This document shows, piece by piece, positions 1,378 through 9,127 of a stretch of DNA of 64,000 nucleotides (the stretch's first letter is position 1; every line of letters begins with the position of its first letter). Source of the stretch: a virus. Position numbers and translations under genes: made by a program. The stretch covers positions 37,361 through 101,360 of the IMG/VR virus record IMGVR_UViG_3300045012_000053. One strand, written 5' to 3'. The notes under the pieces were generated by a model that saw only the letters and a program-made list of their open reading frames with translations, was not told the DNA's origin and did not search any database.

Positions 1378-1692
1378 ATGGACCCAGCAGCTCTTACGTT
1401 GGGACAGATTTCCTCGGCCCTCAGAGATTTTACTGTGGTAGGAGTTCTTTTAACTGTCGCGTGGAAGTCGCGCGGCATGTACGAATCGGCGAAGAACTTC
1501 TTTGAGCGATTGACGAAGCACATGGATAAGATGGAGAGTGGTATGGAAACTCTCTTGACTAACCATCTGTTCCATATCGAAAAAGAATTGAAAGTGATGG
1601 CTCGCCGACAGGTGAAGGCTATCGAGGTGTTGCAGGCTCAGTCTGATGTAATGACAGACGACGGCGCACCACCGCCAGTAATAGAGGCGTAA
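1378..1692 (+). CDS. Single-TM plus coiled-coil membrane protein (holin/lysis accessory candidate)
   Basis: FTVVGVLLTVAW hydrophobic segment followed by a heptad-rich helix; AAGGA SD. Confidence 0.5.
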   Translation: MDPAALTLGQISSALRDFTVVGVLLTVAWKSRGMYESAKNFFERLTKHMDKMESGMETLLTNHLFHIEKELKVMARRQVKAIEVLQAQSDVMTDDGAPPPVIEA

Positions 1693-1892
1693 TGCCAGCA
1701 GTATCGAAGAACCAGCGCATCGCGATGGCGATTGCGGAACATCATCCGGAAGACCTGAACGAGAAGAACAAGGGTCTGGCGGATATGTCGCACAAGCAGC
1801 TGCACGAGTTTGCTGCCACACCGGAGAAGGGTCTTCCGGCACACGTTCACAAGAAGGCATCGTATCAAGCTGCTCGCGCAGCAAGGAAGTAG
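1692..1892 (+). CDS. DUF3008-like small phage protein
   Basis: MPAVSKNQRIAMAIA...MSHKQLHEFAATPEKGLP pattern; coupled to the upstream stop. Confidence 0.6.
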   Translation: MPAVSKNQRIAMAIAEHHPEDLNEKNKGLADMSHKQLHEFAATPEKGLPAHVHKKASYQAARAARK

Positions 1893-2175: not shown

Positions 2176-2314
2176 TGGACTGGTGACGCAGAAGAACTCT
2201 TCGCCATCAGGAACCCGAAGAGCGGAACCCGGGAATCATACCGGGATGGTTGAGTGCCATCTTCCTAAGCCCCCACTCAGGGGTGTAGAAGAGCATGCGT
2301 CATCAGTGGTTCCA
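2176..2314 (+). ncRNA. Candidate structured ncRNA (closing stem plus four hairpins plus kissing loop)
   Basis: 2179-2190 pairs with 2296-2307 (12 bp); internal stems 2197-2222, 2228-2245, 2245-2261 and 2269-2284; loop TGAGTG is complementary to loop CACTCA. Confidence 0.55.
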
Positions 2315-2337
2315 GCAAATTTTGTGCACAATCGGTC

Positions 2338-2385
2338 GGGCGTGCCACTAACACGCCCTCCTACTCTTTAGTGGAGAGTATCATG
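2338..2385 (+). promoter_or_regulatory. Twin-hairpin kissing-loop leader occluding the SD of an EndoVII gene (copy 1)
   Basis: GGGCGTG-CCACTAA-CACGCCC then TACTCT-TTAGTGG-AGAGTA; the loops are exact reverse complements; ATG at 2383. Confidence 0.65.
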
Positions 2386-2742
2386 ACTTTAAGTTTACGT
2401 GAGCGCAATAATCTTGCGGCTCAAAAGTATCGGAAAAATCATCCCGAGAGAAGGCGTTTTATTCAAGCGCCCAAACGTGGAACAACCAAAGCACAAGCTG
2501 ACGCCAAACTTTTGGAGCAAGAGAATAAGTGTGCGATTTGTGAAGAAATTTTTATAAAGACGCCCCACATTGACCACGACCACGTAACAAATCAATTTAG
2601 AGGGCTACTGTGTAGAGCCTGCAATCACATGCTAGGCAATGCACGAGATAGCATCACTGTTTTACAAAGTGCAGTTGTGTATTTGAAAAAGTATGGAGCC
2701 TACAATGGTAAAGAAGCACCCATTCAGCCACACGGTGGTTGA
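2383..2742 (+). CDS. Endonuclease VII-family HNH (homing) endonuclease
   Basis: QENKCAIC...HIDHDH...RGLLCRACNHMLG; AT-rich relative to flanks. Confidence 0.9.
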   Translation: MTLSLRERNNLAAQKYRKNHPERRRFIQAPKRGTTKAQADAKLLEQENKCAICEEIFIKTPHIDHDHVTNQFRGLLCRACNHMLGNARDSITVLQSAVVYLKKYGAYNGKEAPIQPHGG

Positions 2743-2992
2743 ACATCACAGAGATGGTTCTCACACCATTCATCACATCCACGAAAAGCACGGACATATC
2801 CACAGCGTTCCGAAGCGTGACGGCGATGTGCGTGGCGCTGCGGGCGATCACGATGGGATGCTGGACCACGTTATGGACCACACCTCTCAAATGAACCCGG
2901 GCGAAGGCCACGACGAAAACAACGAAGCGCTTGCGGCAGCAGGTCCGGCGGCAGCAGCCCCGGCGGCAGCGGCGGCACCTCAAGGGGCCTAA
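2705..2992 (+). CDS. Small His-rich protein
   Basis: HTVVEHHRDGSHTIHHIHEKHGHIH; GGAG SD. Confidence 0.65.
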   Translation: MVKKHPFSHTVVEHHRDGSHTIHHIHEKHGHIHSVPKRDGDVRGAAGDHDGMLDHVMDHTSQMNPGEGHDENNEALAAAGPAAAAPAAAAAPQGA

Positions 2993-2993
2993 A

Positions 2994-3176
2994 ATGGCAA
3001 CTTCCTTTTACCGCTCGATGCACCACCTTCGTAAGGGCGGACTGCACGACGCGCTACACATCCCGAGAGACGAGAAGATTCCAGCAGAGCGTCTAGCCTC
3101 GGCGAAGAAATCTCCCAATGCTCATGTGAAGAAGATGGCTGTGATGGCCGATAACATGAAGCACTGGAATCACTAA
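2994..3176 (+). CDS. Small basic phage protein
   Basis: KGGLHDALHIPRDEKIPAERL motif of small basic phage proteins. Confidence 0.6.
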   Translation: MATSFYRSMHHLRKGGLHDALHIPRDEKIPAERLASAKKSPNAHVKKMAVMADNMKHWNH

Positions 3177-4693: not shown

Positions 4694-6997
4694 GTGGCAC
4701 TTACCGACGCACAGAGACAGGCAAATAGCAGAGCAAGAAAGAAGGGACTACCTGAACCTTACAGCGCAGCAGAATCGAAGGCACAAGCGGAGGCGCACGC
4801 GGCAAAGGAATCAAGACTCGTAGAACTGTTGGAAGAAGTTGCGGCCCACGACAGAGAAGGAAAGAGATACAAGAGCGAGGCCCGCAGCTATACGAAGTTG
4901 GTGCGTCTGTATTACGGTCAACCTGAGAATGGAGATGCCGATGACGATGAGACCAGCGACGGCAAGACCGCCAAAAAGCCGAAAGGCCCGAAGCGTCCCA
5001 ACCCATCAGAGACTCGTATACGAATTCAAAACTCCGACGCTGCTCCCTTGGAGCCAGTTAAGGGTAAATCCCGCAAGCGCGCAATCGAAGACATCACCTA
5101 CGAAGTAGATGATATCGTCGGTTTCTGGCGCTGGCTCGATCTGCGAGATCGCGCGCGAAAAGATTTGTATTGGCTCTGCCGACTACTCGGGCTGGGCGTG
5201 TACCGCGACGTGCACCAGATCACCTGCGACCAGTTCGTGCAGAAGAACTTCGGCGGACCTTGGCTGAATCGGGACGGCACGGTAGATCGTGAACGCACCC
5301 CGCTTGAGCCGATGTACTTTGAAGGCTACACGCTGGACGATTTTCACGAGATGATCGATGCGCAAGAGCGTTTTGATGCGCAAGGTCGCTCGACAAAAGA
5401 AATGATGCTGCTCGACTCTCGTGGCTTTTACAAGTCAACGATTGACGGAGTAGACTCGGTTCAATGGCTGCTGAACTGCCCTGATATCCGCGTGCTCATC
5501 ATCACTGGTGAGTACAAGCTGGCGCTGTCGTTCATGCTTGAAATCAAGGGCTACTTCTTTGCAGCGGAAGGCCAAGACTTTACCTCGTTCCAGCTATTGT
5601 TTCCCGAGTACGCGCTGTACGGCGTGGATGGGACTTCGAAGGAACCGCTATTCTCTCCCGCTCGTATCCTGACACAACGTCAAGGCTCGATCTGGGTGAA
5701 CTCAATCGTTGCGAACGTATCCGGTTGGCACTGCGACATCAAGAAGGGTGACGATGTTGTCACCAACGCGAACTCGAACACGGAAGACACGAAAGAGAAG
5801 CTAAAGAAAGATTACAACGGCACCGATGACTTGCTCGACCCGCACGGGTTTAGCGATCACATAGGCACCCGTTACTTCACCGACGACTGGTACGGCACGC
5901 GTCTCACGCCTCAAGACGGAGAGAGCGAGATCGCGCCGATCAAGTACCACTGTCGCGGATGCTGGGAAGTTAGACCGGAATACGCAGAAGTTCCGATCAT
6001 GCGCCTCACCGAAGAGATGGTGAAGCTGACGTTCCCGCAGAAGTGGACCTTTGCGAAGTTGCACCGTTTGCTCTTAAAGAAGGGCGAGCGCGACTTCCGC
6101 AACCAGCAGCTCAACGAGCCTACGGACGCCGCAGAAGACAGCGGCTTCAAGGTCAGCTTCACGGAGCATGACTTACGCGCGCACAGCTATCAGCGCGAGG
6201 CCGCGCCGAAGGCTGGAGACGTTTACATTACGTGGGACTGGGCGCTCTCGGACAAGAAGACATCAGACTACTCGGTCGGCGTCGTGGCTCGTTTGTACAA
6301 GAACGACATGAACGAGTGGGCGTTCGTAATTCTCGAAGTCATATACGACAAGTGGAAGTACTCGGAACTCGCTTTTCAGATCGTGGCGCTCTCGAAGCGC
6401 TGGGGTCCGAAGGTCACCATGATCGAAGCGTCCAACGCTTTCGATCTTTTGAGAGACGAGATCACACGAGTCGGCCAGCGTCAAGGCTACCAGCCGTACA
6501 TATACTGGAAGCAGCCATCGCGGGAAGAGAATGCGAAACGAAACCGAATTAAATCGTTGGAAATCCTTTTAGCGGAGCACCGTTTGCACTTCGTGCTCGG
6601 CCCGTGGATTGACGAAACGTTCAAACAGTTCACCCAGTACACAGGCGAGAAGAAGAACAAAGGCCGCAAGGAAGATATCCCGGACGCCATCTCATACATG
6701 ACGTATATTCTCCCGGCGGAAGCTCGACCAATCATCGACAAGATCGACCCGGAAGAAGAGAAGAGACTGGCAGAGGAACGAGACAAGCAGTTTTTGAAAG
6801 TGCGCCACTACGAAGCGTACTTTGGACAGAGAGTTAGAACGAAAGAAGAAGGCGGAAACCTTCCCGCTCCGACGTGGCGACAGTGGTCGCGTGGAGACTC
6901 GGGCGAGGTAAAACCGCCGGAGCCAGAGCCAGAACCGCCAAAGCCGCAGGACCCGAGAATGAAAATCTTCGGCAATAAAGGGCCTTGGCGCTTGTAA
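4694..6997 (+). CDS. terL: Terminase large subunit
   Basis: ATPase motifs SRGFYKST and GWHCDIKKGDD, GTRY, NQQLNEP; RNase H-like WDWA...DYSV...EDIPDA; AGGAG SD; precedes portal. Confidence 0.9.
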   Translation: MALTDAQRQANSRARKKGLPEPYSAAESKAQAEAHAAKESRLVELLEEVAAHDREGKRYKSEARSYTKLVRLYYGQPENGDADDDETSDGKTAKKPKGPKRPNPSETRIRIQNSDAAPLEPVKGKSRKRAIEDITYEVDDIVGFWRWLDLRDRARKDLYWLCRLLGLGVYRDVHQITCDQFVQKNFGGPWLNRDGTVDRERTPLEPMYFEGYTLDDFHEMIDAQERFDAQGRSTKEMMLLDSRGFYKSTIDGVDSVQWLLNCPDIRVLIITGEYKLALSFMLEIKGYFFAAEGQDFTSFQLLFPEYALYGVDGTSKEPLFSPARILTQRQGSIWVNSIVANVSGWHCDIKKGDDVVTNANSNTEDTKEKLKKDYNGTDDLLDPHGFSDHIGTRYFTDDWYGTRLTPQDGESEIAPIKYHCRGCWEVRPEYAEVPIMRLTEEMVKLTFPQKWTFAKLHRLLLKKGERDFRNQQLNEPTDAAEDSGFKVSFTEHDLRAHSYQREAAPKAGDVYITWDWALSDKKTSDYSVGVVARLYKNDMNEWAFVILEVIYDKWKYSELAFQIVALSKRWGPKVTMIEASNAFDLLRDEITRVGQRQGYQPYIYWKQPSREENAKRNRIKSLEILLAEHRLHFVLGPWIDETFKQFTQYTGEKKNKGRKEDIPDAISYMTYILPAEARPIIDKIDPEEEKRLAEERDKQFLKVRHYEAYFGQRVRTKEEGGNLPAPTWRQWSRGDSGEVKPPEPEPEPPKPQDPRMKIFGNKGPWRL

Positions 6998-7015: not shown

Positions 7016-9127
7016 ATGGCGGACATCGACGTAGCAGTAGCCAACTTGGAACAGGTGCCAGCAGCTGAGATCACGACGGACAATACCTACGTGGACTCGG
7101 AGACTGGGACGATTCAGTTCAATGATACTGCGGCTATCAAACTTGTGCTCGACAGCGCGGAGATAGCGGACAATTTCATCAACATTAATCAGTGGGCCAG
7201 CGGTTGGACAATGTCCGACTTGCTATACCAGTCGCCGATGTCTACCAGCGACGGAGGCTCCGGCAGCACAGACGTAGCGAACTCGGCGGTGCCGAAGTTC
7301 ATGGTCTCGAACCACATCAGTTCGATTGTTCCGAAGATCATGGGCGGCATCTTCTACGAAGACCCGTGCTTCCTGCTTCGTCCGGCCCCGAACACAGATC
7401 AGGACGTGATCGCCGCGAAGACCGCGCTGTTCACGTTTCAGCTCAAGGCTATGCGCTTTGAGGAACAGATCGAACTTGGGCTGGAGCAGATGGCGCTGCT
7501 TGGCACTGCTATCTGGAAGTGGGGCTACACCGAGTACGAAAAGACCGAGAAGAAGTACAAGCGCTATGCGCCCAAGGTTAATGTGCCGGATGGTCTAGAG
7601 ACCGCGCCGATTGACACGCCGGACTCCGACGACTTCGAGATCGAGTTCTACAAGAAGACAGTCTCTCACCCGTGGTTGAAGTTCTGCGACATCCGTACAG
7701 TCCTAGTGGACCCGGGATGCCGCGTGGGCGACATCCGTACAGCCAAGTGGGTTGTGTGGCGCGACTACGCTACTTACGATGATTTGGAAAAGCTTCGCGG
7801 GATGGAAGGTTACGAGATTCCTAGCGAGGCAATTCTTCGCTCGATGTTTGCGAAGGCCACTTCTCCGGGACCTGACAACATTACGATGACCATCCCGGAA
7901 GGGATGATGGGTTATTTGCAGCACTCGAAGCCGAGAAGCTACAAGACTTCGGCGGACCCAAACAAGGCTCCGCTGGAAGTGTTGGAGTATTGGGACAACG
8001 ACAAGGTTATCGTTGTGCTCATCTACAACGGCCACAACATTTTGATTCGCAACGAAGCCAATCCGTTTGGAAAGATTCCTTTCTACTCGGCAAACTGGCG
8101 CAACATTCCTGACTCGTTCTACGGGCAGGGACTGGGCTTGCTAATCGGTAGCGAGCAGATCGTAGAGCAGGGTGTAACCAACCTCGCGCTCGACCTGCTG
8201 GCGTACTGCTTGCAGCCTGTCGCGCTTCGTAAGAAGGGCTTCAATGCACCGACACAGAACACGCGATGGGAGCAGGGCGGCATCATCGACGTCGAAGAGG
8301 ACGTTGACAAGGCCTTCAAGTTCCTGCAAATGCCTCCTGTGCCTGCGGAAGCGTTCAGCTTCATCCAGCAGTCACAGAGCGCGGGCGCATCCACGTCGGG
8401 CGCGAACGAGCAGGTGGTGCAGGGCGCGGGACACGCGGGTATCAGCACGACGGGTATGAGAAGCGGCACGGGCGCGGCGGCTGTTATTCAAGCCAACGCA
8501 TCTCGTCTCGACGGTCCTACCGGACGTTTCGTGCGCCAAGTTTTCGAACCGTGGCTCTTTCAGATGGATGATCTCGACAACGACCTGTTGCCGACTAGCG
8601 TCATCAAGGATATCCTCGGCGAGAAGATGGGCAACGACTTCAAGGTCGACCACATCGAAATGCGTAACGCGAAGGTCGAATATGAAGTGCTCGCGGGCAG
8701 CAGCCTAGGTGCCAAGAAAGAAATGGCACAGGCTCTTCCGATCATGATTCAGTTGTTGAACAACCCGACGTTCACTGCAAACGCGAACGACGCCGGATAT
8801 CAGTTCGACGCGGTCGCCATCTTCCAAGCGTTCGTGGACGCGGCTGGTTGGAAGTTCAGCCAGAAGTTCTTACGCGAGATGACACCGGACGAGAAGAAGA
8901 AGCACGACGCGAACAGCCCAGCGGCTATCGCGGCGGCGCAGCAGGCATCAGCGCAGAAGATGCAGCAGGACAAGTTCCAACAGGAACAGGTTCTGGAAAA
9001 CCAGAAGCAGCTCGGCAAGGCGGGTAACGAAGCCTTCCGCTCTTCTATCGAAAAGTCAACCGCCCCGCCGTTGCTGGGCACAGGCCCGGACCAGACACAA
9101 GGGTTCGGCGCAACAGACTCTCTATAA
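7016..9127 (+). CDS. Portal protein
   Basis: 703 aa after TerL; LLGTAIWK, NPFGKIPF, FYGQGLG and RSGTG motifs typical of podoviral portals. Confidence 0.85.
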   Translation: MADIDVAVANLEQVPAAEITTDNTYVDSETGTIQFNDTAAIKLVLDSAEIADNFININQWASGWTMSDLLYQSPMSTSDGGSGSTDVANSAVPKFMVSNHISSIVPKIMGGIFYEDPCFLLRPAPNTDQDVIAAKTALFTFQLKAMRFEEQIELGLEQMALLGTAIWKWGYTEYEKTEKKYKRYAPKVNVPDGLETAPIDTPDSDDFEIEFYKKTVSHPWLKFCDIRTVLVDPGCRVGDIRTAKWVVWRDYATYDDLEKLRGMEGYEIPSEAILRSMFAKATSPGPDNITMTIPEGMMGYLQHSKPRSYKTSADPNKAPLEVLEYWDNDKVIVVLIYNGHNILIRNEANPFGKIPFYSANWRNIPDSFYGQGLGLLIGSEQIVEQGVTNLALDLLAYCLQPVALRKKGFNAPTQNTRWEQGGIIDVEEDVDKAFKFLQMPPVPAEAFSFIQQSQSAGASTSGANEQVVQGAGHAGISTTGMRSGTGAAAVIQANASRLDGPTGRFVRQVFEPWLFQMDDLDNDLLPTSVIKDILGEKMGNDFKVDHIEMRNAKVEYEVLAGSSLGAKKEMAQALPIMIQLLNNPTFTANANDAGYQFDAVAIFQAFVDAAGWKFSQKFLREMTPDEKKKHDANSPAAIAAAQQASAQKMQQDKFQQEQVLENQKQLGKAGNEAFRSSIEKSTAPPLLGTGPDQTQGFGATDSL

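Follow-up and report, generated by a model that had tools for sequence, protein, structure and literature searches.

The pRNA of phage phi29 oligomerizes on the packaging motor through complementary loops, and RNAs of this type work with a packaging ATPase that has no nuclease domain, in a protein-primed phage. Large terminases with an RNaseH-like nuclease domain are not known to need an RNA to bind the portal. The element described here is likewise a phage RNA of similar size near the packaging machinery, but pRNA (RF00044) is a three-way junction, whereas the present family is predicted to have a five-way junction and a pseudoknot. Small self-cleaving ribozymes such as hammerhead, twister, pistol, and hatchet likewise occur sporadically, in association with phages and between genes, and comparison with this group (which also includes twister-sister and hairpin, the latter a four-way junction) brings out several shared traits: a length near 130 nt, covarying helices around a conserved junction core, tertiary contacts by pseudoknot or loop-loop pairing, and a sporadic, lateral distribution in intergenic positions between codirectional genes. 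The lysine riboswitch (L-box) combines a five-way junction with a loop-loop contact of neighboring hairpins, and both features recur here, as do invariant nucleotides at the junction and a location 5' of a codirectional ORF. EAR, a conserved, pseudoknotted RNA of about 120 nt, lies between genes of the Bacillus eps operon; with EAR/epsC and with HK022 put, the present element shares a cis, intraoperon placement on the coding strand, a similar size, and, in the case of EAR, the pseudoknot.

Viral RNAs have also been predicted in bulk. Fremin et al. 2023 (PMC10690425) obtained over 10,000 unnamed candidate RNAs ("DNAVirus_N") from IMG/VR and report 14 candidates that are consistently upstream of large-terminase genes. 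The present family comes from the same resource and may be one of those unnamed candidates, for which the text describes neither a pseudoknot nor tertiary pairs nor an analysis by lineage. Should the family prove to be among them, its pseudoknot, tertiary pair, and alternative peripheral contacts would still be new, as would its distribution across two lineages and its accessory status. Our search of the literature found no description of the motif.

A preliminary description of this locus, made from its letters, proposed a functional phage RNA with a multiway junction and a kissing loop, akin to pRNA, ribozyme-like, or regulatory, upstream of the packaging genes. By collecting homologues, we can now say with near certainty that the element is a real structured RNA, maintained by selection, and that it belongs to a new family. 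What the RNA does is a more tentative matter, which we take up after describing its fold, its variation, and the company it keeps.

RESULTS

The element and its surroundings

The window, by which we mean the whole stretch of 64,000 nucleotides that was analyzed, is the right-hand 64 kb of a complete IMG/VR record, with terminal repeats, of a soil phage of 101,360 bp. The element occupies 135 bases on the + strand (2179-2313) and is the only copy in this genome. On its upstream side is a 90-codon ORF (1895-2167), and on its downstream side an endonuclease VII/HNH gene (2383-2742). The gene for the large terminase (TerL, 4694-6997), a protein with a Terminase_6C RNaseH-like nuclease domain that matches phrog_38 (terminase large subunit), lies 2.4 kb downstream and is followed by an SU10-type portal gene (7016-9127).

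The minimum-free-energy structure calculated by RNAfold (-56.8 kcal/mol) consists of a 12-bp closing helix and four hairpins, with a z score of -3.5 and only 1 of 200 shuffled sequences as stable. It reproduces the layout of the preliminary description, in which every coordinate and motif proved exact, including the four hairpins (CTCTTCG/CGAAGAG, CCCGG/CCGGG, GATGG/CCATC, and GCCCC/GGGGT). The features of the element, as refined by the family alignment, are collected in Table 1. Coaxial stacking of P1 on the pseudoknot helix is possible, and the A/U run that follows them is a possible 3' boundary or processing site.

Table 1. Features of the element, in window coordinates
Feature	Position	Strand	Remarks
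P1 5' strand, ACUGGUGACGCA	2179..2190	+	12-bp closing helix (RNAfold); 12/12 pairs change on both sides
J1/2, GAAGAA (family consensus R-GAAGAAC)	2191..2196	+	identical in 39/39 sequences; also a search anchor
P2 hairpin, CUCUUCG/CGAAGAG	2197..2222	+	loop holds the pseudoknot 5' strand; 6/7 pairs change on both sides
Pseudoknot 5' strand, GGAACC (loop 2)	2210..2215	+	pairs with 2308-2313
J2/3 linker, consensus GCGnAC	2223..2227	+	covarying base G2225 (column 71)
P3 hairpin, CCCGG/CCGGG	2228..2245	+	conserved 8-nt loop GAAUCAUA (consensus nAnnnAUR); C2237 pairs with G2225
P4 hairpin, GAUGG/CCAUC, loop UGAGUG 2251-2256	2245..2261	+	length variable in the family; 4/4 modeled pairs covary
P5	2261..2291	+	invariant lower stem and internal loop (CUUCCUAAG opposite GUAGAAG)
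P5 upper stem, GCCCC/GGGGU, loop CACUCA 2274-2279	within 2261..2291	+	upper stem covaries
J5/1, AGCA, end of invariant AGAAGAGCA	2292..2295	+	from the alignment; also a search anchor
P1 3' strand, UGCGUCAUCAGU	2296..2307	+	pairs with 2179-2190, one G-U
Pseudoknot 3' strand, GGUUCC	2308..2313	+	abuts P1; spacer after P1 of 0-2 nt family-wide
A/U run, AAAUUUU (family pattern AAAWUUU)	2317..2323	+	position-specific composition in both lineages

The statement that the element belonged to no recognized family held up. At the gathering threshold, none of the 4227 Rfam families matched at the element in a search of the whole window, and cmscan against the same 4227 families returned nothing relevant for positions 1900-2600 (E<=10) or for 16 other members of the family (E<=5). 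ARAGORN found no tRNA or tmRNA.

A family from uncultured phages

A terminase-based set of 45 related loci contained two homologues. One (L018) is 84% identical to the window element, with compensatory changes already visible; in the other (L026) the stem sequences differ, and the architecture and junction strands are as in the window. With the junction strands as anchors, pattern scans were run through viral, metagenome, and prokaryote-genome collections, and true members were separated from purine-rich coding false positives by folding and a covariance model. The false positives were not rare, as they made up 8 of the first 20 pattern matches, and a looser pattern with two anchors returned mostly purine-rich coding sequence. 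The outcome was 40 matches, 39 of them distinct, all on uncultured viral or metagenome contigs. Because GAAGAAC, CCUAAG, and AGAAGAGCA served as search anchors, their invariance in the family is partly by construction. When the covariance model built from all members was run on two sets of loci selected by TerL only (45 and 79 loci), it returned one weak, incomplete candidate with different anchors and no other different-anchor variant in those sets.

A scan of 185,579 prokaryote genomes produced 11 pattern matches, none of which was confirmed by the covariance model; annotated phage records gave no match by megablast or blastn, and an exact 22-mer scan of viral contigs gave none either. The range of the family is thereby limited to uncultured phages about 100 kb in size, chiefly from soil metagenomes.

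Covariation and tertiary structure

Across the 39 distinct sequences, 33 of the 40 nested pairs show compensatory changes on both sides. All five helices covary, so the covariation expected of homologues of a structured RNA is present throughout, and the sole invariant part is the lower portion of P5 (CUU.C.U with A.G.AAG). Standard pairs fill 94.6% of the paired cells in the 39 sequences, compared to 64.7% after shuffling of columns and 38-48% with slid partners, in an alignment that was fitted to the covariance model and so favors structure. The tests of the pseudoknot and of the loops, described below, are free of the alignment. The proposal of a functional structured RNA is borne out by these substitutions, which fit neither a coding sequence nor a chance fold.

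The pairing of loop GGAACC (2210-2215) with the tail GGTTCC (2308-2313), which had been put forward as an option for the window, turned out to be a family-wide pseudoknot. Complementarity between the P2 loop and the tail after P1 was found in 21/21 nonredundant members tested, in many different sequences, with runs of 4-8 Watson-Crick pairs (mean, 6.3) compared to a mean of 3.8 for mismatched combinations of loop and tail. None of 5000 permutations reached the observed total (p<1/5000), and members found later are alike. Between the window and L018, GGAACC/GGUUCC is replaced by GGACC/GGUCC, both strands of the pairing having lost one matching base.

A mutual-information scan recovered all the nested helices and one further pair, which joins a base of the J2/3 linker to a base of the P3 loop. 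This covarying tertiary pair (columns 71 and 83) is C-G in 22 sequences, G-C in 15, and something else in 2 (n=39), and its equivalent in the window is G2225 with C2237. Invariant strands line the junction: RGAAGAAC, GCGnAC, CUU(A)CCUAAG, and AGAAGAGCAY. The alignment contains 77 G-U plus U-G combinations but only 22 A-C plus C-A, an asymmetry that identifies the folding strand as the gene (+) strand. These comparisons show a predicted architecture of five helices, P1 to P5, around one junction, locked by the pseudoknot and carrying a tertiary pair between J2/3 and loop 3. We infer that the conserved core is far more elaborate than a simple stabilizing hairpin would need.

An extra 5' helix was considered and left out of the family structure. 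The pairing of UUGGA in the 5' flank with UCCAG, as drawn in the minimum-free-energy fold, competes with the pseudoknot, and a GGG in that flank is conserved in one lineage only.

Interchangeable contacts at P4 and P5

The kissing interaction between TGAGTG and CACTCA was a central feature of the preliminary description. It stands as a covarying contact, real wherever it is present, but it is limited to part of the family. Loops 4 and 5 can form four or more Watson-Crick pairs with each other in 8/39 members (permutation p<1/5000) and use five sequence pairs to achieve this: UGAGU/ACUCA in the window and L280 (shortened to UGAG/CUCA in L018 and L274), CAAAAC/GUUUUG, AGCC/GGCU, GUUGG/CCAAC, and AUUGA/UCAAU. 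Members without kissing loops have a GNRA tetraloop in one or both positions or a palindromic loop 4, the latter being an invariant (G)GUAGCUAG (UAGCUA) in 8 members; in 23/39 the loops are neither complementary nor palindromic. The pattern of exchange shows that kissing loops, GNRA loops, and a palindromic loop are interchangeable as predicted peripheral contacts of P4 and P5. Such swapping is typical of large folded RNAs.

The complementarity of loops 4 and 5 would fit pairing within one molecule as well as pairing between two. P4 (5-7 bp) and P5 (equivalent to about 10-12 bp) are unequal in length, which leaves room for a contact between molecules.

The 11-nt receptor for GAAA tetraloops pairs 5'-CCUAAG-3' with 5'-UAUGG-3', and the invariant CCUAAG at the base of P5 (also a search anchor) is identical to its 5' strand. 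There is a G-U or G-C closing pair at the equivalent position, as in the receptor, and many members have GNRA loops on P4 or P5. The canonical receptor was nevertheless rejected, since the opposite strand is YNYAG (UGUAG in the window) rather than UAUGG and two of the defining contacts are unmet. A UAA/GAN motif at CCUAAG was likewise rejected, its opposite strand being unfit.

An accessory of the head and packaging module

The RNA is always intergenic, on the gene strand, and within a few genes of TerL or the portal gene in both of the lineages that carry it, which extends to the family the placement beside packaging genes first seen in the window. The upstream ORF ends about 8-12 nt before P1 with its stop codon, a run resembling AAAWUUU follows the pseudoknot, and the flanks are A/U-rich on both sides. 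Many members have a Shine-Dalgarno sequence and ATG within 10-30 nt after the tail.

Two gene orders were found, and they belong to lineages with unrelated types of TerL and portal (SU10-type versus P22-type). The lineage of the window has a small DUF3008-like gene, the RNA, an optional insert, protein A, protein B, further genes, TerL, and the SU10-type portal. Protein A (window 2693-2992) is a small His-rich protein and the commonest downstream gene of the RNA, and protein B (2994-3176) is DUF3008-like. The inserts, which separate the RNA from the conserved downstream gene in at least 8 members, include EndoVII or HNH genes (window, L048, L050, and L051), histidine phosphatase genes (L018 and L187), and an unknown ORF (L026 and L203). 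The second lineage, with the P22-type portal, has TerL, the RNA, a weakly GroES-like gene, and the portal.

Most phages with related terminases do without the RNA, which is present in 2/45 and 1-2/79 of the loci selected by TerL. Completeness reaches at least 99% in four of the relatives without the RNA, two of which have TerL proteins 69-76% identical. Where it is missing, protein A comes directly after the upstream gene or after other cargo: u90 abuts protein A with nothing between in L037 and L044, and HNH-like matches lie just before protein A in L003, L009, and L014. These distributions show that the RNA is accessory, an optional cargo of the head/packaging module in two unrelated lineages.

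The nuclease gene that follows the RNA in the window raised the idea of a homing cassette (HNH/EndoVII) that includes the RNA. We rejected it, because a nuclease gene follows the RNA in only 4/23 surveyed contexts (window, L048, L050, and L051) and HNH-like matches also occur in relatives without the RNA. As both the RNA and HNH genes occupy a variable slot, their adjacency in the window is coincidental. A conserved GUGCCACUAnCAC leader lies downstream of the RNA in these four contexts and in L265, whose downstream sequence is the same as that of L048. A link to the phage's own RNase P RNA was also discarded, as that RNA is present in 4/5 genomes with the element and 4/5 without it.

Promoters of the sigma-70 type, the only type covered, were not enriched before P1 (2/39, compared to a background of 2.2%). 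The window has no promoter or terminator flanking the element and no canonical terminator after it, and the U run is short and lies 3-5 nt from the pseudoknot helix. The G-U asymmetry and these searches show an RNA that is predicted to be transcribed from the gene strand with no detected sigma-70-type promoter of its own.

DISCUSSION

RNAs with this much conserved tertiary structure are usually ribozymes, riboswitch aptamers, or ribonucleoprotein cores. Since the two lineages have different TerL and portal types, the partner of the RNA should not be a lineage-specific phage protein; occurrence with unrelated packaging proteins leaves a host component or the RNA itself. Since unrelated genes have been inserted downstream, the RNA should not be controlling a neighboring ribosome-binding site. 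The constant place in two lineages suggests action in cis on the late transcript.

The explanation we tentatively favor is that the RNA acts by itself, in cis, on the late polycistronic transcript of which it is part. Whether as a ribozyme that cleaves itself or as a processing element of high specificity, it would split or mark the mRNA at the start of the head genes. Such an RNA would be self-contained and indifferent to its neighbors, in keeping with a next gene that varies from His-rich and GroES-like to EndoVII/HNH, histidine phosphatase, or an unknown ORF. An optional, laterally spread element at a constant position in its module, with no enrichment of a promoter of its own and with A/U-rich flanks, is consistent with the same idea. 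The comparison with small ribozymes has its limits, as the conserved sequences differ and no member of that group, including the HDV-like, glmS, and VS ribozymes, was matched through Rfam at E<=10 in the window or E<=5 in the other members. We recognized no cleavage site or catalytic motif, and the 12-bp P1 is longer than is known for the closing helices of small ribozymes. The constant position could also stem from a hot spot for recombination or from linkage to the DUF3008-like genes alongside, and a role in trans, through a host protein or small ligand, fits the same data almost equally well.

More broadly, soil phages might carry in this family a small RNA of a new class, either catalytic or self-assembling, a possibility we hold with equal caution. 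The catalytic variant of this reading would be a new class of self-cleaving ribozyme. The self-assembling variant would form a homo-oligomer through the P4 and P5 loops, in the manner of pRNA, ROOL, or GOLLD, and would work with head assembly or against a host defense that senses terminase or portal.

A stable RNA of about 140 nt, cut from the late transcript at its A/U-rich flanks and acting in trans, is about as likely as the favored account and just as tentative. Its junction would bind a host factor, whether protein, RNA, or small molecule (a signaling nucleotide, for instance), and the RNA would serve as a decoy, sponge, or cofactor, for example as an anti-defense RNA. Both ends of the molecule are closed into the abutting P1 and pseudoknot helices, and the flanks on both sides are A/U-rich. 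Accessory status, lateral spread, and indifference to adjoining genes recall a moron or anti-defense gene, and the association with unrelated packaging proteins in two lineages would point to a host-derived or universal partner. Against this account, anti-defense genes are usually early, whereas the element is among late genes, and a trans-acting RNA need not keep its place beside TerL or the portal, yet this one does so in two lineages. No promoter or terminator of its own was detected, and the partner is putative.

A further reading has host RNA polymerase as the target. The element would then be an operon-level transcription element, either a processive antiterminator of the put or EAR kind or an attenuator preceding the morphogenesis genes. 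An RNA on the same strand, inside an operon, with no promoter of its own and at a constant position at the head/packaging module of two lineages is placed as such an element would be; a modifier of polymerase would tolerate downstream inserts, and a host enzyme as partner would allow spread across lineages. We nonetheless consider this rather unlikely. Close relatives with the same late genes lack the RNA and have nothing in its place (L037 and L044), which is hard to reconcile with a required antiterminator and sets the family apart from put and EAR as dispensable. There was no match to the EAR model or to any other Rfam family, no associated terminators were identified, and no canonical terminator follows the element, in which the U run is both short and displaced by 3-5 nt from the pseudoknot helix.

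The fold might instead suggest a riboswitch, in which the junction would be a metabolite or ion aptamer and the pseudoknot would control the gene starting 15-40 nt downstream. Invariant junction nucleotides, covarying helices, and a pseudoknot with the 3' tail are aptamer-like, a Shine-Dalgarno sequence and ATG follow the tail closely in many members, and the commonest downstream gene encodes a small His-rich protein. With tails read by eye, however, the ribosome-binding site is never in the pseudoknot, and no consistent anti-Shine-Dalgarno or terminator pairing was seen; P1, with its 12 bp, seems too stable to serve as a helix that switches. The downstream genes are functionally incoherent, and unrelated inserts come before the conserved downstream gene in at least 8 members. 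To our knowledge, every validated riboswitch class occurs in cells, but no copy of this RNA was found in 185,579 prokaryote genomes. The resemblance to the lysine riboswitch fails on the same points, as there is no Rfam match, no expression platform, no coherent set of downstream genes, and no cellular copy. A translational riboswitch is probably not the role of this RNA, and we regard riboswitch function in general as improbable.

The analogy with phi29 pRNA, which the preliminary description had offered, did not survive as a mechanism. According to it, the RNA would multimerize through complementary loops and form part of the motor on the portal, and several observations make the idea attractive: both lineages have the RNA in the packaging module, 8 members show complementary, covarying loops 4 and 5, 8 further members have a self-complementary UAGCUA loop 4 that could pair between molecules, and the unequal lengths of P4 and P5 would permit an intermolecular contact. 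A motor component, however, should not be missing from four relatives that are at least 99% complete and have homologous TerL and portal genes, nor be shared by two lineages with unrelated TerL and portal types. In contrast to phi29 pRNA, the present RNA is optional among close relatives and occurs with nuclease-bearing terminases of two unrelated types; the TerL in the window has a classical RNaseH-like nuclease domain. The covarying loop pair is found in 8/39 only, not family-wide, and 23/39 members have loops that are neither complementary nor palindromic. The Rfam pRNA family (RF00044) gave no match at the gathering threshold over the window or at E<=10 over 1900-2600. We judge a pRNA-like role to be very improbable.

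The last reading, that there is no RNA element and that the locus is a small coding gene (ORF 2183-2371), a DNA site (pac/cos or an origin), or a chance fold, is effectively refuted: a 62-codon ORF does span the element in the window, some forward frame is open in 25/39 members, and pac and cos sites often adjoin terminase genes, but codon-level conservation of the ORF was looked for and not found, stops interrupt all forward frames in 14/39 members, substitutions by codon position (7/11/4 and 7/7/8) show no third-position bias, anchor spacing varies modulo 3, massive compensatory covariation that includes the pseudoknot speaks against chance or a DNA site, and strand-asymmetric G-U pairs (77 versus 22) are unexpected for a double-stranded DNA site.

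The slot upstream of the head genes emerges from this survey as a hot spot in which RNA genes, homing nucleases, and other cargo accumulate. The 39 sequences, together with the consensus and the covariance model (R2), suffice for synthesis and direct testing of the RNA. If the RNA is catalytic, a class would be added to the known ribozymes; binding to a host factor would instead make it a phage RNA effector of a new kind.

Loop motifs and reduced forms of the RNA

In the window copy of the RNA, the sequence GGAACC occurs twice, once in loop 2 (2210-2215) and once across the J2/3 linker and P3 (2224-2229), so that in the window sequence alone the tail GGUUCC has a second potential partner. Covariation across the family backs only the pairing of the tail with loop 2 and gives no such backing to 2224-2229. 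In eight members of the family, the P4 loop carries an invariant self-complementary UAGCUA within the sequence (G)GUAGCUAG. Seven of these are the copies at loci L062, L190, L191, L194, L199, L178, and L275, and the motif is present in the P4 loop of L229 too, although that loop was clipped by the parser. The palindromic loop could serve in dimerization or in protein binding.

The element at locus L305 is possibly related to the RNA, as a minimal or decayed form. Helices P1, P2, and P5 are present together with a pseudoknot of 6 bp (GGGGCC/GGCCCC), P3 and P4 are missing, and the junction motifs are degraded (GAAGACC, CUUCCUAGG, and GAGACGGCA); the element scores E = 0.003 to the family model, with a fold z of -1.3. 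As for other structured RNAs, bacterial RNase P RNA is matched in 8 of 10 genomes, each about 100 kb long, from relatives of the window's phage (G001-G003, G005, and G007-G010). The E values are 1e-27 to 1e-33, and most of the matches fall slightly short of the Rfam cut-off; they support the view that phages of this group encode an RNase P RNA of their own.

Features in and around the RNA locus
Feature	Location	Description
Candidate minimal or decayed RNA relative	L305 2039-2148	Directly 3' of P22-lineage TerL
Small basic proteins	window 1692-1892 and 2994-3176	60-66 aa; one each side of RNA slot
Protein A	window 2693-2992	Small His-rich protein, Ala/Pro-rich tail
Histidine-phosphatase-superfamily (His_Phos_1) gene	L018 3125-3757; L187 3749-4360; L003 3112-4104	Slot upstream of protein A
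Large terminase (TerL)	window 4694-6997	767 aa, unusually long
Weakly GroES-like gene	L062 9644-10051(-); L194 3449-3727(-); L212 3840-4184(+); L190 1952-2242(+)	3' of RNA, P22-portal lineage

Genes surrounding the RNA

Where EndoVII/HNH genes lie 3' of the RNA, a common leader precedes them in five members, namely the window (2318-2385), L048, L050, L051, and L265. In all five it begins immediately past the AAAUUUUGU of the RNA and includes a conserved GGGnGUGCCACUAnCACnCCC hairpin. In the window, the inserted EndoVII gene runs at its end into the 5' end of the gene for protein A, which probably starts in truth at the ATG at 2705. Most relatives likewise have protein A conserved upstream of their terminase. 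The protein bears the motifs HHxDGSHTxHHxHE ... DHDGMxDH ... NPGE, and searches of Pfam and PHROG returned no match to it. The His_Phos_1 gene fills the same variable slot in phages both with and without the RNA.

Of the two small basic proteins flanking the RNA slot, the upstream one matches DUF3008 at 23.1 bits, just under the Pfam cut-off of 24 bits, and phages of the P22-portal lineage (L055 and L212) also have an upstream-type protein adjoining their RNA. The downstream one, protein B, has no Pfam match and looks DUF3008-like solely from its conserved motif, SLYRxxHHLRKGGLHxALG. Between the RNA and TerL in the window, no small-terminase gene was recognized. Terminase profiles match TerL only from about residue 214 on, which leaves roughly 210 residues at the N terminus as an extension outside these matches.

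Next to the RNA on its 3' side, phages of the P22-portal lineage have a gene for a protein of about 90 to 135 aa. This protein matches Cpn10/GroES weakly, at an E value of 8e-4 that does not reach the Pfam cut-off, and a DRVLV-type N-terminal motif could be read by eye in at least the L212 and L275 proteins. The weakly GroES-like protein may serve the phage as a co-chaperonin in assembling the head.
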